64,000 bases of DNA from an uncultured archaeon (GCA_964486045.1 CAZALK010000002.1:265811-329810); one strand, 5' to 3'. Shown: positions 1 through 49,709, numbered from the stretch's first letter. The notes: generated by a model not told the origin, from the letters alone. Program-made: numbers and translations.

Positions 1-402
1 GTTGCTTGCCCTAATGGCTCTGAATATTCTCCTGAGCAAATAGTTTTAGATGAAGTTGAAGAGATTTCTAAAAAAACTAGTGCTGTTGTACGAGTTATTC
101 ATGATGTGACCCAAGGTGCAAAGGAAGCCGATGTAATCTACACAGATAGCTGGATGAGTTACGGAATACCACAAGAACAAGAAGAAATACGGAAAAAAGC
201 TTTTATGCCTTTTCAAGTTACATCATCAGTTATGAAAGCAGCAAAATCAAATGCAATTTTTATGAATTGTTTACCGGCAATGAGGGGATATGAACAAACT
301 ACTGAAGTAATTGATAGCCCCCAATCTATTGTTTTTGATCAAGCAGAAAATAGATTGCATATTCAGAAAGCTATAATGCTATTTTTACGAGAAAAATTTT
401 AG
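1..402 (+). CDS. arcB: Ornithine carbamoyltransferase, C-terminal part (5' end outside window); probably catabolic
   Basis: Frame open from base 1; motifs ADVIYTDSWMSYG, FMNCLP and FDQAENRLH; carbamate kinase gene nearby. Confidence 0.9.
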   Translation, partial: VACPNGSEYSPEQIVLDEVEEISKKTSAVVRVIHDVTQGAKEADVIYTDSWMSYGIPQEQEEIRKKAFMPFQVTSSVMKAAKSNAIFMNCLPAMRGYEQTTEVIDSPQSIVFDQAENRLHIQKAIMLFLREKF

Positions 403-426
403 ACTTAAATAAAATTTCTCTAAATT

Positions 427-458
427 TATGTATGTGTATGTATATGTGTATACATATG
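427..458. promoter_or_regulatory. Alternating purine-pyrimidine tract with imperfect palindrome over the vapB start; likely VapBC operator
   Basis: 32 nt strictly alternating Y/R (TATGTATGTGTATGTATATGTGTATACATATG) containing ATGTATA-tgtg-TATACAT. Confidence 0.4.
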
Positions 459-695
459 ACCTCTAAAAATATTAGTATTACTGAGGAAGTATATAAAAAA
501 TTAATGAAGATTAAACGAGAGAATGAAAGCTTCTCTGAACTTTTCCTAAGACTGTTAAAAATCCAAAAAACCAACATGAAAAGAACTTTTGGAGCGTGGA
601 ATTTATCAAAAGAAGAGGAATCTGAGATATGGAAGGCTATTTCAAGTCGTTCTGGTCGAAAATGGGAACGATCAGAAATGGGTGAAATCAAGTGA
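456..695 (+). CDS. vapB: VapB-type antitoxin (archaeal DUF217-like)
   Basis: MTSKNISITEEVYKKLMKIKRENESFSELFLRL signature; GTGA overlap with the PIN gene; start moved from 432 to 456. Confidence 0.85.
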   Translation: MTSKNISITEEVYKKLMKIKRENESFSELFLRLLKIQKTNMKRTFGAWNLSKEEESEIWKAISSRSGRKWERSEMGEIK

Positions 696-1099
696 TAATT
701 CTTGATACTTCTGCATGTATAGATTATCTAAATGGTAATCCTAATCTTAAAAAAGTTATATTTGAACAAGAGAATCTTGTACACCTTACTTCAATTACAA
801 TATATGAAGTAAATATTGGTTTAGAACGAACAAAAAGGAAGATTTCCGAAACTAGATATAAAGAACTATATAAATTTTGGATGGAATTCATTAGTGGTAT
901 GGAAATCTTCTCTTTAGGATTAAAGGAAGCTGAAAAAGCAGCAGAAATTCATGATATTCTTGAATCTAAAGGAAAAATGATTGATGATAACGATATCTTA
1001 ATTGCTGGAATTATGCTTTCAAATGGTATAAATAAAATTATAACTAAAAACATTAAGCATTTTGAATTAATCCAAGAATTAGAAATAATTCAATATTAA
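692..1099 (+). CDS. vapC: VapC PIN-domain toxin
   Basis: ILDTS...YE...DILIAG...TKNIKHF PIN motifs. Confidence 0.92.
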   Translation: MIILDTSACIDYLNGNPNLKKVIFEQENLVHLTSITIYEVNIGLERTKRKISETRYKELYKFWMEFISGMEIFSLGLKEAEKAAEIHDILESKGKMIDDNDILIAGIMLSNGINKIITKNIKHFELIQELEIIQY

Positions 1100-1196
1100 A
1101 ATCAAATAGAAAACTTATGTGAAAAATTTTAAATAATAAGTTAAATACTATAATTTTTCCATTTGTGTTAATTATTTTAGCATTAGAGGTTTTTCT

Positions 1197-2105
1197 TTGA
1201 AAACATTAATTGTAGCATTAGGTGGGAATGCTTTAATAAAATTTGGTGATGAGGGTACAACAGAAGAACAATTTCGAAATTTACGTGTTCCCATAAGTCA
1301 AATCGCAGAATTAGCTAAAGAATATAATATAATTATAACCCATGGTAACGGTCCCCAAGTAGGAAACTTATTGTTACAACAAGAAGCTACTAAAGCAGTT
1401 TCGAAGAGACCATTACAAATTTTAGTTGCTGAGACTCAAGGCCAAATAGGCTTCATGATTGAGTCTACCTTAGATGAAGCACTTATGAAAATTGGTCTTG
1501 ATAAAGAAAAGCTGTTTCTTACTGTTCTTACTTATGTTGAGGTAAATTCTGAAGACCCTGCATTTTTAAATCCTACTAAACCGATAGGTCCCGCTTATTC
1601 GGTGCCAAAAGCGGGATATGTTAAAACAGTAAAAGGATATCGCCGTGTAGTTCCCTCACCAAAACCCATTAAAATATATCAATGGCGTGAGATAAAAAGA
1701 TTAATGGAATTAGGAAGTTGGATTATAATTGCTTGCGGAGGTGGCGGAATTCCTGTAATAAAAGAAAAAAAAAGACTTTATGGTGTCGAAGCTGTAATAG
1801 ATAAAGATCTTGCAAGTGCTAAATTAGCTGAACAAATTAATGCTGATATTTTATTAATAGCAACTGATGTAGAAAAAGTTTCTCTTAATTATGGAAGGTC
1901 AAATCAAGTGGATTTAGATAGTGTTTCTGTTTCTGAAGCAAAAAAATATTTAGAAGAAGATCAATTCCCACCAGGAAGCATGGGACCTAAAATTCAGGCA
2001 GTTATAAACTTTTTAGAATCAGGTGGAGAAAAAGCAATAATAACTTCTATCGATAAAATAATTAAAGCTTTAGATGGAAAAGCGGGGACACAGATATATA
2101 TATAA
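1197..2105 (+). CDS. arcC: Carbamate kinase
   Basis: VALGGNAL, THGNGPQVG, KPIGP, VEAVIDKD and GSMGPK motifs. Confidence 0.95.
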   Translation: MKTLIVALGGNALIKFGDEGTTEEQFRNLRVPISQIAELAKEYNIIITHGNGPQVGNLLLQQEATKAVSKRPLQILVAETQGQIGFMIESTLDEALMKIGLDKEKLFLTVLTYVEVNSEDPAFLNPTKPIGPAYSVPKAGYVKTVKGYRRVVPSPKPIKIYQWREIKRLMELGSWIIIACGGGGIPVIKEKKRLYGVEAVIDKDLASAKLAEQINADILLIATDVEKVSLNYGRSNQVDLDSVSVSEAKKYLEEDQFPPGSMGPKIQAVINFLESGGEKAIITSIDKIIKALDGKAGTQIYI

Positions 2106-2167
2106 GATTATGATTATTTAGGTAAACAATAAATCTCCAATGATAAAACAAAAATTTTGAGCCATAT

Positions 2168-3430
2168 TTAGTCTCGAATTAGGATCTTTTCTATAATTTC
2201 CAGAGCCCAATCAATTTCCTCTCGAGTTATTACTAATGGTGGAGCAAATCTAATCGTAGTCGAATGGGTATCCTTTGCAAGTATCCCATTATTTTTTAAG
2301 TCTTCAACAATTTGCCTAGCATCTTTAGTAAATTCAACTGCAATAAGCAAACCCTTACCCCTTATGTCTTTAATTGGAATTCTTGTTTTCTTTTCACCAA
2401 TTTCTCTTAGTCTCTTGATAAAATATGCTCCCATTTCCTTTGATCGTTCAGCGAGGTTTTCACGTAAGTGAATATCGATGGATTTCATTGCAACAGCACA
2501 TGCCAACGGATTTCCCCCAAATGTACTTCCATGAGTGCCGGGTGTAATTACATCAGGTCCGACTATATCTTTAGTTGTTACGCACGCAGAAACAGGATAA
2601 ATACCACCTCCAAGTGCTTTGCCTATTAGTAACATATCTGGCTTCACGTCTTCATGATCACAAGCAAAAAATTTCCCAGTTCTACAAAACCCAGTCTGAA
2701 TTTCATCTAAAACCATTAGAATATTATATTTTGTACAAACTTCCCTTACACTTCTTAGATAACCCTCCGGAGGGATGTTAACACCAGCTTCTCCTTGTAT
2801 TGGTTCAAATAAAAAACCAGCTACTTTTTCAGGTCCAGTTTCTAGAATAATACTCTCTAATTCTTCTATATCTCCGTAGGAAATTATTTTAAATCCTGGT
2901 GTGTATGGTCCAAAATTTCCGTAATACCTGACTGCCGAGATGTCAGAACTAAAACCGATAATTGTTATCGTTCTTCCATGAAAATTATTTCTACATACTA
3001 TAATTATCGCTTCGTCTTTTGGTATCTTTTTCTTAATATACCCCCATGCCCTTATTATTTTCAAACCTGTAGAAACTGCTTCTGTTCCAGTATTCATTGG
3101 AATAGACATTATTCCTGAATCTGATGGATCATTAATATGAGGACCAACAATTTCAGCTAATAATTTCAAGAAAGGCCCCATCATATCATTATGAAAAGCC
3201 CTTGAGGTTAAAGTAACCTTACTAGCTTGTTCTGTTAAAGCGGCTATGATTTCTGGGTGACAATGGCCAGTGTTTTGACTTGAGTATGCTGATAAACAGT
3301 CAAGATACTTTTTTCCTTCCGGATCATAAACCCAAACTCCTTCTGCTCTAGAGATTACCACGGGAATCGGATGATAATTGTGAGCGCAATACTTTAAATC
3401 CATATCAATATAATCTTTTGAGGTTGGCAT
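2168..3430 (-). CDS. rocD: Ornithine--oxo-acid aminotransferase (class III PLP)
   Basis: AHNYHP, LSAYS, TLTSRAF, EPIQGEAG, DEIQTG, GKALGGG and GSTFGGNPLAC. Confidence 0.93.
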   Translation of the reverse strand: MPTSKDYIDMDLKYCAHNYHPIPVVISRAEGVWVYDPEGKKYLDCLSAYSSQNTGHCHPEIIAALTEQASKVTLTSRAFHNDMMGPFLKLLAEIVGPHINDPSDSGIMSIPMNTGTEAVSTGLKIIRAWGYIKKKIPKDEAIIIVCRNNFHGRTITIIGFSSDISAVRYYGNFGPYTPGFKIISYGDIEELESIILETGPEKVAGFLFEPIQGEAGVNIPPEGYLRSVREVCTKYNILMVLDEIQTGFCRTGKFFACDHEDVKPDMLLIGKALGGGIYPVSACVTTKDIVGPDVITPGTHGSTFGGNPLACAVAMKSIDIHLRENLAERSKEMGAYFIKRLREIGEKKTRIPIKDIRGKGLLIAVEFTKDARQIVEDLKNNGILAKDTHSTTIRFAPPLVITREEIDWALEIIEKILIRD

Positions 3431-3562
3431 AATACTTCAAATAACTTTACTTAAAAAATTATTACTAAATTAAATGAAAGAATTCATTAAAGTTTTAGAT
3501 TTTTTGTAAAATAAGCCTTGGGAAAGCGATGGGAATTCTTTATACTTAGAGACAAAATTCAA

Positions 3563-4057
3563 TTAAAATTCAATATTATCTCCAAATTCTTTTATAGGCC
3601 ATTGCCAATAGAGATCTGTTTTAATAACTCCCTTATCTTTTAATTCTGTAAATAACTTTTCTCTTAAATTATGAAGAAAATTATCGGGATCATAGAGAAT
3701 CTGACCTTCATCTAATGCATCTAAAATTAAATAATATTTTGAATCCGCATAACTTTTCATTTCCTTTGAAGTTCTCCAGAGAGCTTGAATACCTGAACAA
3801 ACAGACATAGTTAAATTAATACCCCACTTACTCCTCTTAAGAAGATCAACAGTAATTTTATCAGAAATAATAAATAAATCAATATCGCTTATATATTCTG
3901 AATCATCCCTAGACCTTCCAGTTGCAACAGACCCATAAAGTAAGATTGAGCGTATTTCTAAGTCTAATTTAAAAATATATTGAAGAAACTCACTTAGTTT
4001 GTTTTTAAAATACTCTTCTTTAATAAAAAATAGGTTTATATCCTCAACTTGAGTCAT
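3563..4057 (-). CDS. Minimal nucleotidyltransferase (MNT) antitoxin
   Basis: LYGSVATG...SDIDL motif; 4-nt overlap with the HEPN gene. Confidence 0.85.
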   Translation of the reverse strand: MTQVEDINLFFIKEEYFKNKLSEFLQYIFKLDLEIRSILLYGSVATGRSRDDSEYISDIDLFIISDKITVDLLKRSKWGINLTMSVCSGIQALWRTSKEMKSYADSKYYLILDALDEGQILYDPDNFLHNLREKLFTELKDKGVIKTDLYWQWPIKEFGDNIEF

Positions 4058-4563
4058 TTTTCAATCAAATCATTACATTCTTTTATGAAATTTGATAATA
4101 ATATTATTTCTTGTTTGAGATTTGGTAATTCATTAATTAGTGCCTTAATATTTATCATAATTTTTTCTAAGTCTTTTAAATATTTAATTGCTTCTAATTT
4201 ATCGTATTTCTCCTCTGGAGTGATTAATTTACCCTCTTTCATAATTCCATATCTAGTGGAGGGTCCTTCTCCTTCAATCCCTTTTGCTAGAGCTGCGACG
4301 TTTTTTATTTTCTCAAGAATTTCTTTTTCAATATTAATATTTTTATTAGTTTCAATGGATTCTAATATTATTGATGGATTGTGAATTTTGCGAAATTTAA
4401 ATCCTAACAATAGGATTAATGCTTTTTGCAGTTGTTCTATTGATAATTGAATTTTAAAGACACACTCAGAATAGTCATTAATTTTATAATTCCTAATTAC
4501 TCTTTCTATATTTTTAAACGCTAAATCTATCCATTCCTTAGTTTTTTCGTAATTAGTGGTCAA
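4054..4563 (-). CDS. HEPN-domain protein (MNT partner)
   Basis: Helical protein with QLSIEQLQKA, KIHN and STRYG motifs; adjacent to MNT. Confidence 0.8.
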   Translation of the reverse strand: MTTNYEKTKEWIDLAFKNIERVIRNYKINDYSECVFKIQLSIEQLQKALILLLGFKFRKIHNPSIILESIETNKNINIEKEILEKIKNVAALAKGIEGEGPSTRYGIMKEGKLITPEEKYDKLEAIKYLKDLEKIMINIKALINELPNLKQEIILLSNFIKECNDLIEK

Positions 4564-4745
4564 ATTGATAATGAAAGTATTTAATATTCTAGTCTATAAA
4601 TAATACGAATTCTATTTTTAAAAAAATTTAGCACTCATTTATATCTATTAATCTTTTTTATGATTAATAACAAAAATCATAATCTAGAGAATTAAAAGTT
4701 TACAGAGAATTTTAAATGCACAACTTCAATCATCACTCTTATTAG

Positions 4746-5555
4746 TTAAGATATTTTATTTTTATTTTCTCTATTTCCTCGTTTTATAATTTCTTTAATA
4801 AAATAAGTTGCAACCATATTAGCCTTAGCACCTGAACCAAAACCTGCATCATATCCTAGCTCTTTTGCCAATTCATTACTTATTCTTGCTCCACCACATA
4901 TTAAAATTACTTTATCACGTATTTCTTCTGCTTCTAATAGTTCTACTAAATTAGTTAAATTCTTTACATGAATATTTTTTTGGGTAACTGTTTGAGACAC
5001 CAGTAATACATCTGCTTTTAATTCTATAGCCTTTTTTACAAATTCTTCATTTGTTATCTGGCTTCCGAGATTATAAGTTTCAATCATTTCAAATCTTTCA
5101 AGCCCATAATGACCCGCGAAGCCTTTCATATTCATAATAGCATCAATACCTACTGTATGAGCATCTGTACCTGTTGATGCCCCAAGAATTACAATTTTCC
5201 GCTTAAGGTTTTTTTTTATGAGTTCATTTATTACTTCAATTGACAAAGTTTCTACCTCAACAGATTCTGCTTGAATTGTTGTATAATCAACTGTATGATC
5301 TATACTGCCATACACTACAAAAAATGTAAAATCTTTATCTAAGGAGCTATGATAGGCTACAGTTGGATCTTTTAATCCCATCTTTTTTGCTAACTCTTTA
5401 GCTGCTACAACTGCTTTTTCATCATTTTCAATAGGAAGCGTAAAACTTAATTGAACTTTTCCATCGTTCATCGTATCGCCATAAGGTTTAATTTTTGTTA
5501 AATCGAGATGTTGATCAAATTCCCTTTTTTCAGTCGAATATAATCCCCCACCCAT
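4746..5555 (-). CDS. kamE: Lysine 5,6-aminomutase beta subunit (B12-binding)
   Basis: KPYGDTMNDGKVQLSFTLP, DAHTVG cobalamin motif and MNMKG PLP lysine. Confidence 0.96.
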   Translation of the reverse strand: MGGGLYSTEKREFDQHLDLTKIKPYGDTMNDGKVQLSFTLPIENDEKAVVAAKELAKKMGLKDPTVAYHSSLDKDFTFFVVYGSIDHTVDYTTIQAESVEVETLSIEVINELIKKNLKRKIVILGASTGTDAHTVGIDAIMNMKGFAGHYGLERFEMIETYNLGSQITNEEFVKKAIELKADVLLVSQTVTQKNIHVKNLTNLVELLEAEEIRDKVILICGGARISNELAKELGYDAGFGSGAKANMVATYFIKEIIKRGNRENKNKIS

Positions 5556-7151: not shown

Positions 7152-8186
7152 TTACTCATTAACTCCAAGGTTATAAACAGGAATAGTGAGTAGTTCAGTA
7201 AATGACTTTAAAAATAAATCTTTATCGAACTCATATCCATTTGGAGATGTAGGATTTATTGTTACAGCGATAATTTTTATAGGTTTTAATACTTTTATGA
7301 TTCCTTCATTCTTTTGGAATTTCATTAGAGTATTATTACTTAAAAATAATTTTGTTCCATCCTTTACCAAAAAAGTGCAACCCTTATACTTTTGGGTAGA
7401 TTTCATTAAGTCTTCTAATAACCTATCTGTAATGGCGCCATTTATTACGATATATTTTGAGTCTTCATCTAAATTTTCAACAATTTCTTGAGCTGAATCT
7501 AATGCTGTGGGGACTTTTAAAAACTTAATCGAATTAGTTTTACTGATAATACCTATTTTTGATTTTTTCATTATTTCTTTTGAGAGATTTATAGTTTTTT
7601 CATTAACCTCTTGCTCCAAATTTAATAAGTTAATAGTATGAATTGTTAAATCTATAACCTCACTCATGTTTCTGGATACCGAAGCTCCTGTCGAGATGAT
7701 AGTAGCATCTGAGATTAAAGGAGTTGAATAAGATCTTCTATCAAACGCTCCATCGACCAGTATGAGATCGCAACCAAGGTTTTTTAATTCTAAACAGATC
7801 TTCTTTAATTGGATGTTTATTGAAGGTCCAGCTAATTCAATATACCCCTCCCCTTCTGTTTTTAAGATCATGACCTCTCCTAAGGGAGTATAAAATCCTG
7901 TATTTTTAATAACCTCAAAATCTATTTTACTATCTTCAAAACATTGTTTTGCTGTAACTACAAAAGTCCCTTTCTTAACATAAATTTGCGGTTTAGGTAA
8001 ATCAGTTATAACATCATATTTTTCACCATCTCTCCCAATTGAAGTGAGACCTAAAACATAAGTTTCTTCTATATTTCTTATAATATAATTTAAGGTAGTC
8101 GTTTTAGAAACATTTTTAGCAAGCCCTATTATCGAGATTACTCTTGGTTCATCAGTTTTATTGAAAAAGTCAGATATAAAGTCCAT
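7152..8186 (-). CDS. kamB: KamB-like lysine 5,6-aminomutase accessory/reactivase subunit
   Basis: IIGLAKNVSKTT degenerate P-loop, LTSIGRDGE and LVDGAFDRRS; lies between kamA and kamD. Confidence 0.8.
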   Translation of the reverse strand: MDFISDFFNKTDEPRVISIIGLAKNVSKTTTLNYIIRNIEETYVLGLTSIGRDGEKYDVITDLPKPQIYVKKGTFVVTAKQCFEDSKIDFEVIKNTGFYTPLGEVMILKTEGEGYIELAGPSINIQLKKICLELKNLGCDLILVDGAFDRRSYSTPLISDATIISTGASVSRNMSEVIDLTIHTINLLNLEQEVNEKTINLSKEIMKKSKIGIISKTNSIKFLKVPTALDSAQEIVENLDEDSKYIVINGAITDRLLEDLMKSTQKYKGCTFLVKDGTKLFLSNNTLMKFQKNEGIIKVLKPIKIIAVTINPTSPNGYEFDKDLFLKSFTELLTIPVYNLGVNE

Positions 8187-8309: not shown

Positions 8310-9548
8310 TTATTTACTTAATTTCTTCCTTCTTAACTTTCTTACCATATCTTCTGGTTCGATAGTCATTTTCTGTCCACTCAATAAAGCACTAACTCCA
8401 ATTTGTTTCTCACAATCTTCGCAATGACAATTTGGAATATAATCGTTAGGTTCTTCATATGTAGTTATAACGCCCTCAAAGTTTCTTAAAACAACACGAG
8501 TATTTCCCTGAGAAATAACGTAATCTGGCATCACTGGAATTTTTCCACCACCTCCAGGGGCATCAACGACAAATGTAGGTACACATAATCCAGAAGTATG
8601 ACCCCTCAAACCTTCAATAATTTCAATACCCTGAGCAACACTAGTTCTAAAATGTCCTAGCCCTATAGAGAGATCGCATTGATAAATATAATAAGGTCTG
8701 ACTCTTATTTTTACTAGTTCCCGTACTAATTTCTTCATTACATGAATACAATCATTTACTCCTCTTAAAAGAACAGACTGGTTTCCCATAGGGATTCCCG
8801 CATCTGCTAACATCTCACAAGCTCTCGTAGAATCTCTTGTGATTTCATTTGAGTGATTGAAGTGTGTATTAAACCAAATAGGTTGATTTTTTTTAAGTAT
8901 TTCACATAACTCTGGAGTAATTCGATGAGGATTTGTAACAGGGGCTCTAGAACCTATACGTATTATTTCTACGTGATGGATCTCTTTCAATCCCTTTAAA
9001 ATTTCTTCCAGTTTCCTATCGGATATTAATAATGCGTCACCTCCTGATAAAAGGACATCTCTAATAGAAGGAGTGTCTCTTATATACTCAATGCATGCAT
9101 CAATTTGAGGTTGTGGTGGTGACATATCATGATGACCTGCAAATCTTCTTCTAGTGCAATGTCTACAGTACATGGAGCAATTTTCTGTTACGAGAAATAA
9201 TACTCGATCAGGATAACGATGGGTTAATCCTTCGACAGGAGAATCCACATCTTCGCTTAGAGGGTCTTCAAGGTCACCAGTATATCTCTGTAATTCGTGA
9301 ATAGTTGGGATAGCTTGTTTTCTGATTGGATCAAAAGGATCGTCGGGGTCAATTAAAGATAAGTAATAGGGGGTAATCGCCATTCGATATTCTTTCAATA
9401 ATCTAGGATCATCTTCTTCATTAGTCAACTTAATATATTTTTTAAGTTCTTCAAAAGTGGTTATTCTATTTTTAACTTGCCAATGCCAGTCATCCCAATC
9501 CTCATCATTTACATGAGAAAACAAATCATTACGTCTATTAACTTTCAT
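8310..9548 (-). CDS. kamA: Lysine 2,3-aminomutase (radical SAM, PLP)
   Basis: LTHRYPDRVL, CSMYCRHC, DAPGGGGKIP and C-terminal CHCEDC. Confidence 0.97.
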   Translation of the reverse strand: MKVNRRNDLFSHVNDEDWDDWHWQVKNRITTFEELKKYIKLTNEEDDPRLLKEYRMAITPYYLSLIDPDDPFDPIRKQAIPTIHELQRYTGDLEDPLSEDVDSPVEGLTHRYPDRVLFLVTENCSMYCRHCTRRRFAGHHDMSPPQPQIDACIEYIRDTPSIRDVLLSGGDALLISDRKLEEILKGLKEIHHVEIIRIGSRAPVTNPHRITPELCEILKKNQPIWFNTHFNHSNEITRDSTRACEMLADAGIPMGNQSVLLRGVNDCIHVMKKLVRELVKIRVRPYYIYQCDLSIGLGHFRTSVAQGIEIIEGLRGHTSGLCVPTFVVDAPGGGGKIPVMPDYVISQGNTRVVLRNFEGVITTYEEPNDYIPNCHCEDCEKQIGVSALLSGQKMTIEPEDMVRKLRRKKLSK

Positions 9549-28200: not shown

Positions 28201-29049
28201 TCATCGAAATGAAGGAATTATTTCCTCAGCAAATTGTTTTATTGTATCCGTCATTTTTGTACCTCGTTGAAAACTTGCTAGAAAATAACCTGCACCAGAA
28301 TCTACAGCCTGTTCCACTTTTGTACGATATTCTTCTACATCAGGAGGTCTCATTTCTCCTGCCATGAATGAGACTTCATCAACTCGATTATGAAATCGTG
28401 CCGATTCAATAACAATTTTCCTCATTTCCTCCGGATCACTCCCCGGCCAAGGTGGGAGAAAACAAATGTTTCCATATTGACCTACTAGTTTCAACATTCG
28501 TGTTCCTCGACTTCCAAAAAGGATTTTTGGGTAAGGTTTCTGTACAGGTTTTGGATCCAAAATCGCTCCTTTAGCTTGATAATATTTTCCTTCGAAATTA
28601 ACCTCTTCTTTAGTCCATAATTGGATCATCAACTCAAGACCTTCATATGTTTTATCTACTCTCACTTTTGGCCCATTCCATTCACTATATCCTTCAAATT
28701 CTATTTGAGACCATCCAGCACCTACTCCAACTATAGTACGTCCACCAGATAAAACATCTGCAGTTGCTATCATTTTAGCTAATACCCCTGGAGGTCGAAA
28801 AGGGACGGGGGAGACAAGTGTACCTATTTTGATATTTTCTGTTTTTGCTAATAAATATGTTATAGCTATCCATGTTTCAAGAGTTCTATTTGTATCTGGT
28901 CTAGGAAGCCAAGGTAATTTTCCCCACATATAATGATCAGGGAGTATTGCTCCATCAAAACCAGATTTATCCGCTTCTATAATAGCTTCTTCAATCATTT
29001 TATAATCATTATACCAGTTTCCTAAACCACCTAAAATGAATTTCATCAT
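28201..29049 (-). CDS. LLM-class oxidoreductase
   Basis: LPDH, IGTLVSP, GRTIVGVGAGW and PKPVQKPYP; paralog of 13489..14340. Confidence 0.9.
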   Translation of the reverse strand: MMKFILGGLGNWYNDYKMIEEAIIEADKSGFDGAILPDHYMWGKLPWLPRPDTNRTLETWIAITYLLAKTENIKIGTLVSPVPFRPPGVLAKMIATADVLSGGRTIVGVGAGWSQIEFEGYSEWNGPKVRVDKTYEGLELMIQLWTKEEVNFEGKYYQAKGAILDPKPVQKPYPKILFGSRGTRMLKLVGQYGNICFLPPWPGSDPEEMRKIVIESARFHNRVDEVSFMAGEMRPPDVEEYRTKVEQAVDSGAGYFLASFQRGTKMTDTIKQFAEEIIPSFR

Positions 29050-29123
29050 ATAAATATTATATACCTCAAGTTTTATTAATTAATGGAGTAAGTTTTATCT
29101 GTCAACCTTTCCATTTTTATTTC
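29028..29123 (+). repeat. Direct repeat copy A: LLM gene 5' end plus upstream region
   Basis: Ungapped match to 29948..30043, 77/96 by hand count, starting with 21 identical bases CACCTAAAATGAATTTCATCA. Confidence 0.9.
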
Positions 29124-29185
29124 CCCAAATGCAATCAAAATATCTTCCATCTAATTTAATAAGATTAATTGATACTTATACAATA

Positions 29186-29533
29186 ATGATCCATAAAGTT
29201 AGATTGCTTAAGGAGAAGCATTTAAAAGAGTTAGAACAAGAATTAAGTCGTGTAATTTCAGAATTAATTAAATTGGGTGCTATAAAAATTATACAATTTG
29301 GATCATCCATCCGAGAGGAATTAAGCTTAACAAGTGATATTGATTTAATTGTAATCATTAAATCTGAACAAAATTTTATAGAACGATCAGCAGAAATTTA
29401 TAAAAAGATAAAACCTAAAGATGTTGATTTGCTCATCTATACTCCTATTGAGTTTAAACATATGAAAGAAGAAAATTTATTTATACAACATGTATTAAAA
29501 GAAGGAAAAATTATTCATGAGCGAATTAAGTAA
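29186..29533 (+). CDS. MNT antitoxin
   Basis: FGSSIR...SDIDL...DVDLLIYT; start moved from 29129. Confidence 0.88.
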   Translation: MIHKVRLLKEKHLKELEQELSRVISELIKLGAIKIIQFGSSIREELSLTSDIDLIVIIKSEQNFIERSAEIYKKIKPKDVDLLIYTPIEFKHMKEENLFIQHVLKEGKIIHERIK

Positions 29534-29930
29534 ACATTCTAAGGAAGCAAAAAGATGGTTTGATCAATCATTAGAAGATTTAAAGAGTGCTACAATTCTA
29601 TTTGAAAATGAACGCTATTATCTCGTCTGTTTTATATCTCAACAAATTGTTGAAAAAGCTTTAAAATCTGTGATTTATTTTAATAAAGAAGATCTCGTTC
29701 TAGGGCATTCAGTTAAGAAATTGGCTGATTGGGCTGGTACTTTCGATAATAAGTTTGCAAAGTTGGGCGAAGATGTATCTATTTTAGATAGTTATTATAT
29801 TCCAACTAGATATCCTAACGGACTACCAGAGGGGATACCTGCTGAAGTATTTAACAAAAAGTATGCTAAGGATGCCTTAGAATTAGCTGAAACTACTATT
29901 AAAATAGTAAAATCATATCTAAACTCATAA
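29517..29930 (+). CDS. HEPN-domain protein
   Basis: QQIVEKALK, GHSVKKL and YIPTRYP. Confidence 0.9.
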   Translation: MSELSKHSKEAKRWFDQSLEDLKSATILFENERYYLVCFISQQIVEKALKSVIYFNKEDLVLGHSVKKLADWAGTFDNKFAKLGEDVSILDSYYIPTRYPNGLPEGIPAEVFNKKYAKDALELAETTIKIVKSYLNS

Positions 29931-29947
29931 AAGAAGATATGGTATTT

Positions 29948-30043
29948 CACCTAAAATGAATTTCATCACAATTGTATTTTATATCTCAAGTTTTATTTAT
30001 TATTAGATTTAGTATTATTTCTCAATCTTACCCTTTTTAATTC
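29948..30043 (+). repeat. Direct repeat copy B: orphan copy of the LLM gene start and upstream region
   Basis: Offset exactly 920 bp from copy A. Confidence 0.9.
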
Positions 30044-30103
30044 ATGAGGTGTAATACAAAATTCTTACAAATTCTTTAGTCAGATTAATTCTTACTCACG
30101 TTA

Positions 30104-30721: not shown

Positions 30722-30943
30722 AATAATAAAATATATTTAAATTTGTTTTTAACATTTATTTAGGCACCAATTGAGAATTCTGAACAAGTGGAATAATGTG
30801 AACTAAGATATTTCATGTAATAAAAAATATTGAATTAAAAAATAATTATTTCAAATTCGTGAAACAGACCTTTCACGAAGATCTCAATTTATAAGGATCG
30901 ATTTGAAGTAAAATTATATATTAAAAAAATAATCTTATCATAT

Positions 30944-44408: not shown

Positions 44409-44411
44409 GAA

Positions 44412-44966
44412 ATGTCAAAAACTACCAAAAAGAGAGGCGGAGTTATTCATCAGTTTATTATTGTTGACCCTAATTTATGCAGTGGATGCGAAACATGCGA
44501 ATCTGTATGCTCTTTTGTGCATGACGGAGAATTTAATCCAATAAATACAAGAATTCACAGAGTAAGAATTGAACCAGTTTTAAATGTCGCATTAGCGTGT
44601 CAGAAGTGTGATGATGCGCCATGCGTTCGTAGTTGTCCTGAAAAGGCTTTGGAACAAGATAAAGAAACAGGTTCTATTATTGTAGATGATGATAAGTGTA
44701 ACGGATGTGCTTTTTGTATTCGTGCGTGCGACTTTGGCGTTCTCAACTTACATATACAATCTCAAAAGGCGCTTATTTGTGATCTATGCATTACCATGAG
44801 AGATGACTATATCAATCCTGAAAGAGGAGAAAAATATCCCGCATGCATTGATCTCTGTCCAAAAGAAGCGATTTCATTGAAAGACGTAGAACAAATCGGT
44901 GAAGAGAAGCGGATCGATGCTGTCAAACGGCTTTTTGGTGAAATTCTTTCAGAATCCGAAGGATAA
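44412..44966 (+). CDS. 4x[4Fe-4S] ferredoxin-like partner subunit of AOR
   Basis: CSGCETCESVC, CQKCDDAPC...CP, CNGCAFCIRAC and CDLC...CIDLCP. Confidence 0.92.
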   Translation: MSKTTKKRGGVIHQFIIVDPNLCSGCETCESVCSFVHDGEFNPINTRIHRVRIEPVLNVALACQKCDDAPCVRSCPEKALEQDKETGSIIVDDDKCNGCAFCIRACDFGVLNLHIQSQKALICDLCITMRDDYINPERGEKYPACIDLCPKEAISLKDVEQIGEEKRIDAVKRLFGEILSESEG

Positions 44967-44991
44967 ATCTTACTTTTTTTTATATTCTTTT
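44912..44991 (+). repeat. Left 80-bp direct repeat (ferredoxin gene 3' end plus T-tract)
   Basis: Identical to 48291..48370; extends to 85 bp with one mismatch. Confidence 0.97.
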
Positions 44992-45758
44992 TTTTCTAAC
45001 TCTTTAATTAATTTTACTATCTTTTTTTCTCCATTAATGCTTAGATAGCATACTCCACTTTTACGGTAGATTAACCTTTTATTCTCCAAGTTATAAAGTG
45101 AGGTTGTTATATTTGCTTTTGAATGAAGTTTAATCATCTCTTTTATTTTATCGATCTCACATCTTCTATCTACGGAAAAGTATAATAAACTTAATATTTC
45201 ATTAGCAGCAGATAGAGAGGCTAATACCAAAATGTCGCCTTCAAATCTCTGAATATGCGGTGTTGGAATTTCAATAATTTCATCAATCAGTGAATTACTA
45301 TCCACTAAGCTCATATTTGAATAAATACGGATCATTTCAGCTAAGGACCACTTGGATATACTTATTACATAATAGGCATCAATCTTATTAGATATAAAAT
45401 CATTTGAATGTGCACCATCACGAGAATTTCGAAACTTATAAGCAATTTTAAGTGAATCAGCGACAAGTGATTTTACGGATGGTTGAATTTTTTGAAGTGT
45501 TATTGCAGTTTTAAGTCTTTTTCTAATTTTCGTAAGATTTGGTTTAGAAGCGATGCTTTGCCTAGCAGCAAAGTCTAAAACTTGGTAAAAATCTTCAATA
45601 AATTTGCCACATTTTACAAGAACTATTTCGTAATTATTTAAAAGAAATTCAGAGACCATTTCTTCATATTTATCTACTAACTTATCTACTTGGTTGATGT
45701 TAGCAACAGATTTTAAAATTTTGTTTATTTGTCCTTTTTTTTCCTTTGCAGAAATCAT
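44970..45758 (-). CDS. HEPN (Abi_C-like) nuclease domain fused to a C-terminal winged helix
   Basis: KCGKFIE...YKFRNSRDGAH (Rx6H)...DAYY...KWSLAEMIR; C-terminal ILSLLY...LYNLENKRLIY...YLSING. Confidence 0.7.
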   Translation of the reverse strand: MISAKEKKGQINKILKSVANINQVDKLVDKYEEMVSEFLLNNYEIVLVKCGKFIEDFYQVLDFAARQSIASKPNLTKIRKRLKTAITLQKIQPSVKSLVADSLKIAYKFRNSRDGAHSNDFISNKIDAYYVISISKWSLAEMIRIYSNMSLVDSNSLIDEIIEIPTPHIQRFEGDILVLASLSAANEILSLLYFSVDRRCEIDKIKEMIKLHSKANITTSLYNLENKRLIYRKSGVCYLSINGEKKIVKLIKELEKKEYKKK

Positions 45759-45761
45759 TTC

Positions 45762-46244
45762 TTATAGTTGTCCTTTCTTTTTAATTAGTTCTTCAGCATT
45801 TAGGATCCCAGTTTTTGTGATCTCGAACCCTTTTTTATTATCAATTTCAGAAGAGCTTCTTAGTAATCCTCTTCTTATAAGGTTATTCAATGTATCTGAC
45901 ATATTTTTAGGTTTAACTGCTCTTGTTTTATTGAATCTATCTTTAATGTGATCAACATTAAAATTTGTAATATTCTCAAATTTAAATAAGTAGTAACTTA
46001 TTATTAAAGCCGTATCAGAATATGTACCAGGTCTAATTCCTGCAATTAATTCCGATAATGTTAAGGGTGTCTCTTGCTGAATTTCATTGATAATTTTTGG
46101 TAAGTGTCTAGTATTTTGAAGTAAATAAGATAAAACAACCTTAAAAGCCTCTAATTTATATTGATTATCAATTTTATCAACAATGCTAATTGCAAATTCG
46201 ATCTTTTCTTTCAATTTTTTTTCAAGTTCATTCATATCTATCAC
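45762..46244 (-). CDS. Helical N-domain plus winged-helix protein
   Basis: YYL...KPKNMSDTLNNLIRRGLL...FEITKTG. Confidence 0.7.
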   Translation of the reverse strand: MIDMNELEKKLKEKIEFAISIVDKIDNQYKLEAFKVVLSYLLQNTRHLPKIINEIQQETPLTLSELIAGIRPGTYSDTALIISYYLFKFENITNFNVDHIKDRFNKTRAVKPKNMSDTLNNLIRRGLLRSSSEIDNKKGFEITKTGILNAEELIKKKGQL

Positions 46245-46256
46245 ATAATAATAATT

Positions 46257-46847
46257 TTAAATCTCTTCTAAGATTGTTTTTAAATAATCTGGTGCACAAT
46301 ATATATTGACTCTATACTCTCCACGTTCGACTCTTTTTAATTTATCTTCCTTGACTAAGTCAGATAACCTTGAGCGAACTTGTTGGATTTCTAAATTCAA
46401 TTTTTCAGATATATATTCAGCTGTCACGGTATCTTCCTTTATTAGATTTTCTTCAAATAAAAGCATTTTTTCAAGAGAAGAAATATAAATTTGTTCAACA
46501 TTTTTTAAATCTTTTAATCTAATTTTATAAATCAAGTCTCCTTCCCTACTAAATTTAAAGAATTTGCTAGCTAACATTTTAGTTTTAGAAATAAAACTAG
46601 AAAAATCTTCGAAAAGAATTGAATTTTTAATATCATCTGGATTACTAATATTTTCATTTCTTTCATTATGATCTATTACTTTTAATTTGGGTTTAGGTTC
46701 ATGAAAATTATTGTTTTGTAATAATTCTCTTTTTTCATCTATGAAGTTTAAAAATTTATCTAAAAAACTAAAAAAATCACCCTCTTTAATAGAATCTTCA
46801 ACTTCTAAATTAAATCCGATATAACTAAAATTTATTTTAAAATTGAT
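46257..46847 (-). CDS. Winged-helix protein, probably ~196 aa from a non-ATG (ATC) start; paralog of 46853..47476
   Basis: Frame stays open to 46859; GAGGTG 8 nt before ATC at 46847; N-terminus INFKINFSYIGFNLEVEDSIKEGDFFSFLDKFLNFI; C-terminal VRSRLSDLVKEDKLKRVERGEY. Confidence 0.65.
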   Translation of the reverse strand: MNFKINFSYIGFNLEVEDSIKEGDFFSFLDKFLNFIDEKRELLQNNNFHEPKPKLKVIDHNERNENISNPDDIKNSILFEDFSSFISKTKMLASKFFKFSREGDLIYKIRLKDLKNVEQIYISSLEKMLLFEENLIKEDTVTAEYISEKLNLEIQQVRSRLSDLVKEDKLKRVERGEYRVNIYCAPDYLKTILEEI

Positions 46848-46852
46848 AGTAT

Positions 46853-47476
46853 TTACACCTCAACAAGTTCGCTCAATTGCTTCAAACATTTCCTAGCTTC
46901 CAAAATCCCTTGCTGAGTAATTCTATAAGTTTTACCATCAATTTTTACAAATTTAGTATAATTTCCTCTAAACGCTTTTGATAAAGAAGTCGGATCGATG
47001 TTTGATTTTGTTAAAATCGGTGTGAGGATTTTTGAGGAAACTTTATCCTCATTATTGATTAAATTATTTTCATAAAGGAGCACTAAAATTGCTATTCGTT
47101 GTTGCTCCGTTCTTGTATCCTTTTCTATTGGTATTAAAATTGGGGGAATTTTTGTTTCAGCTCCAAAATCAAAGATCATTTGAATTTTATCAGGTGAAAT
47201 TCTTGAATCTTTTGCGAGTAGAAAAATCTCATCAGAAGTTTTATCACTTTGAATATTTATTGAATTGGTTAATTTCCCAATTCTCTTTCTATAAATTTCA
47301 TCATGTGCTAAACGAGGTATTTGTGATTCCATCTCTTTCATAGAAATAATACTTTCATTAGATGAAATGAATTCTATTATTCTCTCGAAAAACTCAAATA
47401 TATCACCGTCGTACTCAAAATTTTCTACTTCAATAAGTACTCCTTTTACATTCAATTTTATCTTTATATTTGTCAA
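46853..47476 (-). CDS. Small N-domain, linker and winged-helix protein
   Basis: IKIKLNVKGVLIEVEN...; C-terminal LVLLY...SLSKAF...YRITQQG. Confidence 0.7.
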   Translation of the reverse strand: MTNIKIKLNVKGVLIEVENFEYDGDIFEFFERIIEFISSNESIISMKEMESQIPRLAHDEIYRKRIGKLTNSINIQSDKTSDEIFLLAKDSRISPDKIQMIFDFGAETKIPPILIPIEKDTRTEQQRIAILVLLYENNLINNEDKVSSKILTPILTKSNIDPTSLSKAFRGNYTKFVKIDGKTYRITQQGILEARKCLKQLSELVEV

Positions 47477-48290
47477 AATTCTAACCTTAATGTGTTTATC
47501 AATATTTTTAAAGAAAAATCAAATTTAAAGTTTTGTAAAAAACATTTAGATGATTTTTTTTTTGCTTCGTTTATTCTTTTAAATAGGGAATTCGATGTCT
47601 TTTTTAATAAAATAAACAAGAGTTCATCAATTTCTACATATTCAACGGTATTATGTACATATTATATTCGGATTTATTTTATAGTGTTAATATTAATTAG
47701 TTAATATATAGGTTGTAGATTTATGTTTAAATTCATTTATAAATAAAACCATTTTTTTTAATAAAAATACAATAGTTTTTATATATTCAATATTCCTTTA
47801 TTTGAGATTAATAAGACTGAATTATCCCTTACAATTATTTGGTTAAGTTTGCAAACAGTTTCTTAGGACAGATTTAACTATGATTTTGGTTTTTACTAGA
47901 ATGAAGGGAAAGTGATAACTCGATTTATAAGAAAAAACGAATCAATATCTACTTGTGAGTAGATGTGTATTATTATCTCAAATCTATGTTATTGCTAAAT
48001 ACTAACAAACATACTTTTTATTTGAAATTATCTATTCGTTTTACAGAAATTATGATGAATCAAGATTCGTATAATATTATTTTAAAATTTTTAATTGCTT
48101 TTGGTAGATAATAAAAGATCTCAAATAATTTAAAAAGGAGAAGTGGACTAGTTCTATTAAGTTTTTTCGAGTTTATCTAAAAAAACTGAAGATTAACTAT
48201 TTGCTTTTTTTTGTTTGATTTTTTTATTTGAATTTTTCAGTTGATTGGGTTGAATTCTCCATCACTGACAAATAACGAACAGATTAAGCA

Positions 48291-48370
48291 GATCGATGCT
48301 GTCAAACGGCTTTTTGGTGAAATTCTTTCAGAATCCGAAGGATAAATCTTACTTTTTTTTATATTCTTTT
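48291..48370 (+). repeat. Right 80-bp direct repeat (orphan copy of the ferredoxin gene 3' end)
   Basis: Identical to 44912..44991. Confidence 0.97.
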
Positions 48371-48489
48371 ATTTTTAGTTTCTTATATGTAAATCTTGCT
48401 TAATTTAGATTCACATAGAACATTAAAAAAAGTTAATTTTATTAAGACTTACGTCGTTAATTACTTTAAAATTATCTTAGTGAAATTAT

Positions 48490-49626
48490 ATGGTTGAAAT
48501 ACATGGATTTTGTGATGAGCAATTTAAATCAGTTAAAGAGGCTTTTACTCAAAATTTTGAGGAAGGATTAGAAGTCGGTGCCTCTTTTGCAGCTACTTTA
48601 AACGGTAAACCTGTAATAGACATATGGGCGGGATATAGTGATGCCGCCCAAACAAAACCTTGGGAAAAGGATACCATAGTAAACGTATATTCAACGACAA
48701 AGGTAATGACTGCAATATGTACACTCATGTGTGTTGATCGAGGATTATTAGATCTCGATGCACCTGTTGCTAAATATTGGCCAGAGTTTGCTCAAGGAGG
48801 TAAAGAGAAAATACCAGTTAGAAATCTCCTCAGCCATACTGCAGGTCTTTCTGGTTTCGATAAACCTATTTCAATAGAAACTTTGTATAATTGGGAAAAA
48901 GTTGTAAACTTACTGGCTGCGCAAAAACCTTGGTGGGAACCCGGAACTAAAAGTGGTTATCATGCTATTACATTTGGTCATCTTTTAGGCGAACTAGTAC
49001 GTCGAGTAACTGGGAAAACTATTGGAACATTTTTCAAAGAAGAAGTAGCAGATCCCCTTGGCGCAGATTTCCATATTGGTCTTCCTGAGGAACATGATTC
49101 TCGGGTTGGTGAATTAATCCCACCTCCCGAAATGGATTTGAGTCAGTTAGGAGCTGTTGATCCAAACTCTGTAGCAGTAAAGACATTTATGAGTGTTGCA
49201 ACTAGTCCTGCAGAAACTAAGACTCGTGCTTGGCGTGCTGCTGAGATTCCTGCCGCTAATGGACATGGAAATGCTCGGGCTGTGGCTAGAATAACATCTG
49301 CAGTGGCATGTGGTGGTGAAATTGATGGAGTACGTTTATTTTCCTTAGAAACAATAGAAAAAGCTTTAGAGGAACAATCCTATGGAACGGATTTAGTACT
49401 TATGGTGCCAATACGTTTTGGTTTAGGTCTTGGTCTCCAGGGAAAAGAAGCTCCTATAGGACCGAATCAACGTGTTTTATACTGGGGCGGATGGGGAGGT
49501 TCTGTAAGTATAATGGATCTTGATGCTAAGTTAAGCATTGCCTATGTTATGAACAAAATGGTATCAACCTTGACAGGAGATCCTCGAAGTGTAAGACCCA
49601 TTGAAGCATTATATAACTCATTGTAG
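48490..49626 (+). CDS. Serine hydrolase, beta-lactamase class C/EstA family
   Basis: SxxK (YSTTK), LLSHTAGL, GYHA and WGGWGGS. Confidence 0.94.
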   Translation: MVEIHGFCDEQFKSVKEAFTQNFEEGLEVGASFAATLNGKPVIDIWAGYSDAAQTKPWEKDTIVNVYSTTKVMTAICTLMCVDRGLLDLDAPVAKYWPEFAQGGKEKIPVRNLLSHTAGLSGFDKPISIETLYNWEKVVNLLAAQKPWWEPGTKSGYHAITFGHLLGELVRRVTGKTIGTFFKEEVADPLGADFHIGLPEEHDSRVGELIPPPEMDLSQLGAVDPNSVAVKTFMSVATSPAETKTRAWRAAEIPAANGHGNARAVARITSAVACGGEIDGVRLFSLETIEKALEEQSYGTDLVLMVPIRFGLGLGLQGKEAPIGPNQRVLYWGGWGGSVSIMDLDAKLSIAYVMNKMVSTLTGDPRSVRPIEALYNSL

Positions 49627-49643
49627 TTCTTCTTTTTTTTTTT
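49627..49643 (+). terminator. Oligo-T archaeal-type terminator
   Basis: TTCTTC followed by a long T run immediately after the stop codon. Confidence 0.55.
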
Positions 49644-49656
49644 GGTAATTCGAGAA

Positions 49657-49709
49657 TCTGAATCCGAAGGGTAAAAATTAATTTTTTTTAATATCTTTTT
49701 TATTTTAGT
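49657..49709 (+). repeat. Third, diverged copy of the ferredoxin gene 3' end plus T-tract
   Basis: TCT GAA TCC GAA GGG TAA vs TCA GAA TCC GAA GGA TAA (SESEG*), followed by a similar T-rich tail. Confidence 0.8.

Follow-up and report, generated by a model that had tools for sequence, protein, structure and literature searches.

How small sets of accessory genes come to lie between a conserved gene and a second copy of that gene's own end or start, with no integrase nearby, is the question raised by a stretch of 64,000 nt (hereafter, the window) on a 330-kb contig (C2) of an Asgard (Loki-type) archaeon, the genome of which was assembled in 45 contigs with 7.8% contamination. A preliminary description of the window had reported this arrangement at four places in three host loci, and all four observations proved to be real by repeat search, null tests, and comparison with congeners. 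The repeats at the three host loci were unrelated to each other in sequence, as had been described. Integrase-free insertions have left dead ends of anchor genes in this genome, and small foreign gene sets are bracketed by a live end and its dead copy. Judging from the relatives compared, such gene gain beside conserved genes is recurrent and most likely proceeds via the host's own recombination.

Duplicated gene ends and starts flank the cargo

The ornithine carbamoyltransferase (OTC) gene is represented by its 3' part, at positions 1 to 402 on the plus strand (Pfam OTCace, 1.3e-42), and its last ~24 nt (379-402, ending in TAG) form the live duplicated terminus. Downstream on the same strand are the VapB-VapC cargo (432-1099), consisting of VapB (432-695, likely true start at 456; VAPB_antitox, 5e-15, 56 bits) and the PIN protein VapC (692-1099; PIN, 8e-13, 49 bits), then an orphaned old OTC terminus reading LCEKF* (1115-1132), and the carbamate kinase (CK) gene as the conserved right flank (1197-2105; Pfam AA_kinase). 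VapBC is flanked by TTACGAGAAAAATTTTAG (385-402) and TTATGTGAAAAATTTTAA (1115-1132). On sequence alone the 18-nt remnant is borderline: 0.48 occurrences with up to 3 mismatches are expected per window on both strands (pattern test), and 273 of 3229 genome windows scored equally high in a 40-nt local-alignment test. It was accepted because five congeners (G049, G014, G015, G019, and G044) have an intact OTC stop exactly at the remnant position, 67 to 72 nt before the CK start, which settled the earlier claim that VapBC lies between LREKF* and LCEKF*. The orphan terminus overlaps a conserved A/T box upstream of CK (putative promoter), and nucleotide identity across the genus is 76-88% from about position 1115 onward, into CK.

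The second anchor is a luciferase-like monooxygenase (LLM) gene on the minus strand (28201-29049; Pfam Bac_luciferase, 4e-42). A live copy of the LLM start (22 nt) and upstream region runs into the leader of an MNT-HEPN cassette (29028-29176), and an orphan copy lies beyond the cassette (29948-30096). The cassette itself (29138-29932; Pfam NTP_transf_2 and HEPN) contains MNT (29186-29533; NTP_transf_2, 35 bits) and HEPN (29517-29930; HEPN, 91 bits), and all these features are given on the plus strand. The two copies, found by repeat search and examined by alignment with and without gaps, are 74% identical over 149 nt without gaps, with a local score of 74 against a null maximum of 25 among 2720 windows, so that MNT-HEPN does lie between two LLM-start copies. 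The orphan comprises 22 nt from the beginning of the LLM gene and its upstream region, and it resembles the cassette leader over its right ~40 nt; the live copy has a homologue in the region upstream of LLM in G002. MNT-HEPN and VapBC are both pairs of adjacent small genes with family domains above curated cut-offs and are predicted type II toxin-antitoxin systems.

The third anchor, Fer4, encodes a 4Fe-4S ferredoxin-type subunit after an aldehyde:ferredoxin oxidoreductase gene (44412-44966, plus strand; Pfam Fer4 families). The repeat search revealed three plus-strand copies of its end: copy 1, which is live and consists of the last 60 nt of Fer4 and 32 nt of T-rich downstream sequence (44907-44998); copy 2, or orphan A (48286-48377); and copy 3, or orphan B (49639-49705, about -36 to +35 of the stop, ~80% identical). 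Copies 1 and 2 are 97% identical (92 nt, 3 mismatches, exact 80-nt core), consistent with the exact 80-bp copies described before, and enclose island 1 (44999-48285, minus strand), four genes with winged-helix tails: an HEPN/Ymh-like and CARF-like gene (44970-45758), a gene at 45762-46244, an AbiEi-like wHTH gene (46257-46577), and a gene at 46853-47476. The island 1 genes gave no Pfam match above cut-off; leads came from weak PADLOC matches to CARF and AbiEi and from Atlas (Hypoth_Ymh/DUF4145 at 0.76-0.79). Between copies 2 and 3 is islet 2, a gene for a beta-lactamase-fold serine hydrolase (48490-49626, plus strand; Pfam Beta-lactamase, 4e-75). Copy 3 aligned over 49639-49701 with gaps or over 49657-49705 without gaps (score 31), and 1 of 1845 null windows scored as high (score 86), which was taken as the window containing copy 2; the described position of the hydrolase gene between copies 2 and 3 was upheld.

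Recombinases and genome-wide enrichment

Profile searches of the 330-kb contig for five families, namely tyrosine recombinase (PF00589), serine recombinase (PF00239), TnpB (PF07282), DDE_Tnp_1 (PF01609), and Cas1 (PF01867), gave no match, in agreement with the statement that no integrase or transposase is nearby. The whole genome has five tyrosine recombinases and two DDE_Tnp_1 proteins, none on this contig, and no PF00239 match. No recombinase domain was found in the cargo proteins of the window or in the Fer4-site cargo of six lineages, and no terminal inverted repeats bounded any cargo. Insertion of a transposon, IS, or casposon was rejected on the lack of a transposase or Cas1 match on the contig, the lack of terminal inverted repeats, and the duplication lengths of 24, 63-92, and 149 nt.

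Genome-wide, 30 direct pairs of a gene terminus and an orphan were detected within 8 kb, at densities of 8.8, 4.5, and 1.5 per kb of separation, against a background of 0.14-0.25 per kb at 16-100 kb. About 1.5 pairs are expected from the density of distant pairs, and the inverted-repeat control gave 7. The candidates include duplications at both gene starts and gene ends, and two of the 30 touch a recombinase. One tyrosine recombinase lies 0.6 kb from the candidate at C1:471307. Local direct repeats of all kinds are also strongly enriched in this genome.

Empty, donor-like, and independently filled sites in relatives

Empty sites were found at every locus tested, that is, OTC|CK, LLM|p125 (nearly empty), and Fer4|beta-lactamase. 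Two more genome-wide candidates, C13 and C15, have empty sites in many congeners; in G014 and G016, the cargo genes of C15 are located on the upstream side of the same gene.

At the OTC|CK site, the VapBC cassette is present at the identical position in five congeners (G001, G041, G020, G005, and G068) and decayed in three (G043, G022, and G067), and its presence state requires at least five changes on the CK tree. G049 and G019 have nearly identical OTC genes and CK genes that fall in different clades. The VapBC event is an old one, shared across the genus, rather than a recent gain by this genome. The OTC end reads TTTTAG in all congeners bearing VapB(C) and TTTTAA at empty sites; counted by genome, the stop is TAG in the six VapB(C) genomes and in G016, which has a different 197-nt insert, and TAA in five empty sites and G002. 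The Leu codon located eight codons before the stop ends in A in 6/6 VapB(C) genomes and is CTC or TTG in 7/7 others (Fisher p = 0.0006, the relatives not being independent), and the OTC remnants in G022 and G020 retain CTC. This co-occurrence of the OTC-end allele (Leu codon and TAG stop) with the cassette across scattered lineages suggests that the cassette moves together with an OTC-end allele of its own, as read from ~13 related genomes and a short sequence on which OTC-end trees did not resolve. In G013, the OTC-end remnant, CK promoter, and CK start are duplicated in tandem with no foreign gene.

The LLM locus is syntenic in G002, G004, G061, G059, G062, and G052, and the nearly empty LLM|p125 sites are those of G004 and G059. 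The MNT-HEPN cassette shares 85-88% nucleotide identity with copies in G045, G050, G049, and G016, of which that in G049 is syntenic and the other three are without LLM or p125 neighbours. The CK backbone is 75-84% identical to that of G045, G016, and G049 (no G050 match), and copies elsewhere that are closer than the backbone point to a mobile cassette.

At the third locus, AFOR-Fer4 is kept in 14 congeners with variable downstream content, and island 1 was not found at any of these or at 80 Fer4 loci of other lineages. In the metagenome lineages L141, L144, and L135 (whose contig ends inside the beta-lactamase-fold gene), the beta-lactamase gene comes immediately after Fer4 and no orphan is present, a donor-like configuration in which anchor and cargo are natural neighbours; a comparable donor was found neither for island 1 nor for the LLM event. 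L152 has its own independent orphan and a cargo different from that of the present genome (G000) before the same beta-lactamase gene and an equivalent orphan after it, and both have three Fer4 ends in series. The left ends of the orphans lie at -60 and about -36 (G000), -38 (L150), -225 (L152), -159 (L191), and -108 (L208), whereas the right ends all lie at +32 to +42. These differing left ends with a common right end indicate that the Fer4 anchor took independent insertions. L177 has one inverted Fer4 orphan, which needs an extra step in the insertion model described below.

Proposed mechanism and alternative explanations

The preliminary description had proposed a homology-anchored route of gene gain. 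Two of the outcomes that it had named as refuting, namely no enrichment over the null and relatives without empty sites, were tested for and did not occur. Support for it comes from the enrichment, the empty sites, the donor-like site, the independent insertions of different cargo with varied left ends and a common right end, the allele linkage, and the lack of recombinases of the five families searched, in addition to the scars themselves, and the recombination steps and the selection filter that follow are inferred from those scars. We consider it probable that the scars arose by recombinase-free, homology-anchored insertion with an illegitimate end, either by homology-facilitated illegitimate recombination (HFIR) or in a Campbell-type manner. 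Incoming DNA from a related lineage, carrying the same conserved gene with different neighbours, would pair with the resident gene on one side only, and its other end would be joined illegitimately within the resident gene end, at a depth of a few tens to hundreds of bases. Such a joint would be the work of HFIR, and a single crossover with a circularised fragment would give an identical product. The live gene end would then be the incoming allele, followed by the cargo, and the resident end would be displaced downstream as a dead copy still joined to the gene's former neighbour. The reading frame runs unbroken from the gene into its live end, as a one-sided anchor would leave it, and the joint positions vary on the other side (Fer4 orphan left ends). 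Repeated events would stack, giving the order Fer4, island, orphan A, beta-lactamase gene, and orphan B, and, once formed, a cassette could spread through the genus or disappear from its members by ordinary homologous recombination, either in the genes beside it or between its pair of repeats. At OTC|CK, the OTC stop overlaps the putative promoter box of CK; therefore, only insertions that duplicate this overlap would keep both genes working, which may act as a selection filter. The divergence of the copies (74-97% identity) could also come from in-place decay after an initially identical duplication, and synonymous sites between species of the genus are near saturation. To our knowledge, neither HFIR nor natural DNA uptake has been demonstrated in Asgard archaea.

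The same scars could have been left by small integrative elements that bring a copy of the gene end with them and are either mobilised in trans by a site-specific recombinase whose gene lies elsewhere (CIME-like) or decayed with loss of the integrase. An integrase classically leaves direct repeats that restore the gene end: e14 and phage 21 insert into icd of E. coli with a substitute tail, the element-borne end keeps the gene intact, and the former end persists as a direct repeat on the far side of the element. The serial insertions at one site recall tandem accretion, and the tyrosine recombinases of this genome, including the one beside C1:471307, might act in trans, as might a recombinase of an unknown family. 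Elements of the e14 kind encode an integrase and use one fixed core site, and neither feature was found here: the contig and the Fer4-site cargo of six lineages lack recombinases of the searched families, the inner repeat ends range between -36 and -225 at the single Fer4 anchor, repeat sequences and lengths (24, 63-92, and 149 nt) differ among loci, gene starts as well as ends are affected, and the cargo is as small as 0.7 kb, all of which make this origin unlikely. We regard as similarly improbable a local rearrangement with no horizontal transfer, in which replication template switching, or tandem duplication with partial deletion, traps neighbouring DNA between gene-end copies. The tandem duplication in G013, the upstream position of the C15 cargo in G014 and G016, suggestive of local reshuffling, and the abundance of local direct repeats would fit such a process. 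Against it, the cargo of the window is absent from the syntenic sites of close relatives and present elsewhere or in other lineages, the MNT-HEPN cassette matches distant species more closely than the backbone does, Fer4 and the beta-lactamase gene occur in a donor-like arrangement, and the OTC-end allele travels with VapBC.

A live tail, cargo, and displaced tails in series are also the architecture of homing-type tail replacement, in which the resident end is cleaved by a cargo-encoded nuclease and the break is repaired from an element that brings a resistant tail. In the WHO elements of Torulaspora and Lachancea yeasts and the mobile ORFs of fungal mitochondria, displaced housekeeping 3' ends lie in arrays beside the cargo, and an endonuclease of the cargo drives the process with recoded tails. 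In contrast, neither such a nuclease nor a recoded tail was seen in the window by Pfam and PADLOC searches, where the cargo comprises PIN, HEPN, MNT, wHTH, and beta-lactamase-fold proteins with no DNA endonuclease family, and the PIN and HEPN domains are taken to be RNases. Fer4 copies 1 and 2 are 97% identical, and therefore the new tail was not recoded against cleavage, so that homing is very unlikely. An assembler could have concatenated strain variants, given the fragmented and partly contaminated assembly and the strain-variable hot spots. However, the copies differ from each other, so that separate reads are required for each junction, this architecture is seen again in independent assemblies of other projects (L150, L152, L191, L208, and many congeners), and the orphans of candidates C13 and C15 run directly into flanks that relatives show to be ancestral; we give an artefact hardly any credence.

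Relation to known systems and implications

In transformable bacteria, HFIR is reported to import unrelated DNA through a one-sided homologous anchor and an illegitimate joint of variable position, without a dedicated recombinase (de Vries & Wackernagel 2002, PMC122324; Prudhomme et al. 2002, PMC122325; Meier & Wackernagel 2003; all as cited in PMC5361080). The bacterial events are experimental and reportedly are usually insertions with deletion, whereas the archaeal ones are read from natural scars, and the class visible here would be the one with the joint inside the anchor, so that the gene end is duplicated. Published analogues of gene-end displacement may be found in the reported C-terminal displacement of rhs genes (Jackson et al. 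2009, PMC2935791) and in the T6SS effector-immunity arrays of Vibrio cholerae, for which HFIR without an integrase was proposed (Kirchberger et al. 2017, PMC5361080). There, new modules enter behind the conserved part of a gene and older 3' pieces are pushed downstream in series, and serial orphan 3' pieces downstream of a full gene, as in rhs, CDI, and T6SS arrays, are likewise seen in G000 and L152. In those systems a different toxin tip is displaced together with its immunity gene, and variation is what the arrangement serves, whereas here the displaced piece is a dead duplicate of the housekeeping gene's own end or start, the cargo genes are separate, and many unrelated genes are hit. Membership in the rhs/CDI/T6SS class was rejected, as no alternative toxin tips with cognate immunity were found, the orphans are dead tail copies, and the cargo is free-standing.

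Extended beyond this window, and put forward tentatively, the reading is that Loki-type Asgard archaea, which are poor in integrases and transposases, might gain most of their small accessory and defence genes beside core genes by a general recombinase-free pathway of one-sided homology, with ~30 scars per genome at gene starts and ends and with orphan ends as a readable stratigraphy of successive gains. If this is true, orphaned gene ends could be read as a layered record of acquisitions.

Duplicated termini at the Fer4 and LLM genes

The genome carrying the window (G000; 5.18 Mb, 31% G+C, 45 contigs; window at contig C2:265811-329810) was compared with 53 congeneric species genomes, whose core-gene nucleotide identity to it was roughly 75-88%. 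The last 60 nt of the ferredoxin-type Fer4 gene that follows AFOR, together with 32 nt downstream (44907-44998), are present again at 48286-48377 (3 mismatches; exact core of 80 nt), and a third, shorter copy with 80% identity was located at approximately 49639-49705. Copies 1 and 2 enclose island 1, with four wHTH-tailed genes of which one is HEPN/Ymh-like, and copies 2 and 3 enclose a beta-lactamase-fold gene; this arrangement confirmed the placement of a wHTH/HEPN island and a serine hydrolase in the preliminary description. Atlas and PADLOC searches with the island 1 proteins returned HEPN, CARF and AbiEi-like leads, all of them weak.

AFOR-Fer4 was conserved in 14 congeners, where 0.7-4 kb of species-specific genes separate it from a conserved downstream gene block, which is on contig C17 in G000. 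None of these 14 species representatives had a second Fer4 end, and the duplications surfaced only in metagenome contigs. Among 72 metagenome loci with sufficient downstream sequence, four contained a direct orphan (a dead copy of the gene end beyond the cargo), spanning, with respect to the Fer4 stop, -38 to +34 (L150), -225 to +32 (L152), -159 to +36 (L191), and -108 to +42 (L208); an inverted orphan was found at a single locus (L177). The cargo comprised an AAA_21 ATPase and a DUF4276 protein in L152 and a PIN protein in L191. The beta-lactamase-fold gene directly followed Fer4 in L141, L144 and L135, with no orphan after it in L141 and L144 (the L135 contig stops inside the gene). The metagenome arrangements thus represent a donor-like state and a pre-insertion state for island 1. 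In L152, Fer4 preceded a different cargo and an independent orphan, after which came the same beta-lactamase gene and another orphan. Together with G000, this arrangement indicates two independent insertions with different cargo, the same junction and different inner ends, and an older layer common to both.

At the LLM gene, 29028-29176 and 29948-30096 were 74% identical without gaps (local score 74 versus a genome-wide null maximum of 25). Both copies consist of the initial 22 nt of the gene (minus strand) plus upstream sequence; this upstream sequence also shows homology to the corresponding LLM region in congener G002. The MNT-HEPN pair is located between them, as had been described, and the repeats at the three host loci showed no mutual relationship, in agreement with the earlier claim. 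The backbone order was p143, a variable interval, LLM, a variable interval and cyclophilin-like p125, and the LLM-p125 interval was nearly empty in G004 and G059. The cassette (29138-29932) showed 85-88% identity to copies in G045, G050, G049 and G016, whereas backbone identity was just 75-84%, indicating that the cassette moved recently. The G049 copy occupies the syntenic hot spot without LLM. The right part of the orphan LLM copy is similar to the cassette leader, and the resident LLM locus probably already held such a cassette. The donor arrangement was present in no relative examined, and LLM-start orphans were found in 0 of 6 relatives searched.

A palindrome, TTCGTGAAAC-N5-TTTCACGAA, was found near this locus (30857-30880) and has approximately 10 genomic copies in G000, all intergenic (C1:397484, C4:32662, C5:254596, C7:89021, C9:189579, C10:38456, C13:58253 and C20:71513). 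It lies upstream of LLM in G004, G059, G061 and G052, and directly after the MNT-HEPN cassette in G045, G049 and G016. A role as an attachment site was ruled out because the copies are intergenic, unlinked to HEPN or MNT genes, and older than the cassette, being present in empty sites; the palindrome is more likely a binding site of a dimeric regulator. In G045 (L071, contig C46), the HEPN 3' end and downstream sequence were duplicated (7999-8060 and 9397-9460) around a cargo of about 1.3 kb, with the left junction midway through the palindrome. The duplication adds a case of this scar type from outside G000.

VapBC at the OTC-carbamate kinase junction

The OTC gene terminates at 402 (LREKF*) and is followed by VapB (432-695), the PIN-domain protein VapC (692-1099), an OTC-terminus remnant (TTATGTGAAAAATTTTAA; 1115-1132) and carbamate kinase (CK; start at 1197). 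For the 18-nt remnant pattern with up to 3 mismatches, 0.48 chance occurrences are expected per 64 kb on both strands, and a looser 40-nt alignment test was not significant (273 of 3229 windows); the match by itself is borderline. The remnant was accepted as real because the intact OTC stop in five relatives (G049, G014, G015, G019 and G044) precedes the CK start by 67-72 nt and coincides exactly with the remnant's position, which supports the reading of VapBC as flanked by OTC ends LREKF* and LCEKF*. In those relatives a conserved box, AAATTTTAAATAATAAG, surrounds the stop and is a putative CK promoter. The CK-side homology to most congeners starts at about 1115-1124.

The VapBC cassette with the same duplicated ~24 nt was detected at the same site in G001, G041, G020, G005 and G068, and a decayed cassette in G043, G022 and G067; further genomes carry different inserts. 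On the CK tree, the VapBC and empty states were scattered as much as shuffled labels, with at least 5 forced changes for each state, and several VapBC genomes had empty sisters. Every VapB(C) genome had TAG as its OTC stop, and every empty site had TAA. A Leu codon within the duplicated segment was CTA or TTA in 6 of 6 VapB(C) genomes and CTC or TTG in 7 of 7 others (p = 0.0006, ignoring relatedness), and the dead remnants in G022 and G020 retain CTC. The OTC-end trees were too short for resolution, and allele linkage is drawn only from this codon and stop association, by which the cassette brings along an OTC-end allele of its own. With the scattered states, this indicates that VapBC is an old cassette, spreading and lost within the genus, and not a fresh gain of G000.

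The OTC 3' parts of G049 (L081) and G019 (L096) were nearly identical (branch lengths 0.024 and 0.007) whereas their CK genes fell in different clades, indicating a recombination breakpoint at this hot spot; the sequences point to a recent allelic transfer. The hot spot is also rearranged in the closest relative, G013 (L080, contig C3), where the OTC-end remnant, CK promoter box and CK start (TTGAAATAG) are tandemly duplicated about 400 nt upstream of CK and a membrane-protein gene replaces OTC in the 1.5 kb upstream examined.

Genome-wide scan for terminus and orphan pairs

ORFs of at least 80 aa were called in G000 (4361 genes, 84% coding), and exact 14-mer seeds in both orientations were chained, refined by gapped local alignment and classified. 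A pair was counted when one copy lay across a gene start or stop and its partner beyond that terminus in non-coding DNA. As a result, 15 direct pairs were obtained at 0.3-2 kb, 9 at 2-4 kb and 6 at 4-8 kb, corresponding to 8.8, 4.5 and 1.5 per kb. The rate at separations of 16-100 kb was 0.14-0.25 per kb, so about 1.5 pairs are expected within 8 kb. The enrichment that the preliminary description called for was therefore present (30 direct pairs versus ~1.5 expected), and the inverted-orientation control gave 7 pairs. The terminus versus interior ratio of orphan partners was similar for direct and inverted pairs; this ratio was dropped, and the distance-decay and orientation nulls were used instead. 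The 30 candidates were split equally between starts and stops, and their cargo was mixed (methyltransferases, asparagine synthase, PAS kinases, acyl-CoA dehydrogenase and others).

For the candidates at C13:131.6 kb and C15:88.5 kb, the true gene end of relatives matched the G000 orphan and continued straight into the post-orphan flank, and these sites are thus single-copy and empty there, in more than 30 genomes for C15. Empty single-copy sites, also sought, were found at OTC-CK in five congeners, at Fer4-beta-lactamase in L141, L144 and L135, and at these two candidates. In G014:C157 and G016:C8, homologues of the cargo genes at C15 (L215, G000:C15:87600-92600) were located on the upstream side of the same anchor gene, and this scar may reflect replacement of the gene by a copy on the opposite side of its neighbouring genes.

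Elsewhere in the window, 70-nt direct repeats with 76% identity (52821-52890 and 58103-58172; 5.3 kb apart) surround six genes, including tandem 121-aa paralogues with 72% identity (53302-53667 and 53826-54191), and may form another island boundary. A 912-aa ORF (59501-62239, minus strand), consisting largely of 156-nt (52-aa) tandem repeats (at least 6 copies, 65-75% identity), probably encodes a repetitive surface protein.

Possible route of insertion

The pattern differs from that predicted for a transposon, for a homing nuclease or for site-specific recombination; the features that define each of these were looked for and not observed. Profile searches of the whole G000 genome detected 5 tyrosine recombinase and 2 DDE_Tnp_1 genes, and no serine recombinase, TnpB or Cas1. 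No match to any of these five families was found on contig C2, consistent with the earlier statement that no integrase or transposase is nearby, and no cargo segment checked had terminal inverted repeats. A recombinase gene was touched by just 2 of the 30 candidates (C1:471307, tyrosine recombinase; C1:834216, DDE). Contigs C40 (5.8 kb) and C45 (2.4 kb), with 58-59% G+C versus 31% in the rest of G000, are likely assembly contaminants.

One-sided homologous pairing followed by an illegitimate second joint would produce such scars, and the product would be the same if a circular fragment integrated by a single crossover. One-sided homology is favoured by the constant outer end, the variable inner ends, the unrelated anchors (the conserved genes with duplicated termini) at both starts and stops, the arbitrary cargo, the linkage between live end and cargo, and the stacking. 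The homology-anchored, sequence-independent gene gain proposed in the preliminary description was consistent with the inner ends, linkage and stacking observed; as an explanation of the scars it is somewhat favoured, with recombination steps deduced from the products. Copy-to-copy divergence could partly be decay in place.

Gene insertion at prokaryotic hot spots without mobile-element machinery is a long-standing question, and Asgard archaea, the closest known relatives of eukaryotes, have large genomes. The mechanism class is already known from bacteria; in the literature searched, no description was found of it as an apparently general process at ordinary gene ends of an Asgard archaeon. 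For rhs loci and the effector-immunity arrays of T6SS, the same insertion mechanism as that considered here has been suggested (PMC5361080).

The scars are a direct natural record of the incoming DNA, the position of the joint and the order of events, which can be read because stacked orphans behave as layers, in an Asgard archaeon with just five integrases and two DDE transposases. For annotation, care is needed before orphaned gene ends are called genes or promoters. If the pathway is general, transformation with one-sided homology is predicted to give anchor-end duplications, such scars would be a simple computational marker for recent gene gain, and the growth of accessory and defence genes around core genes would be explained.
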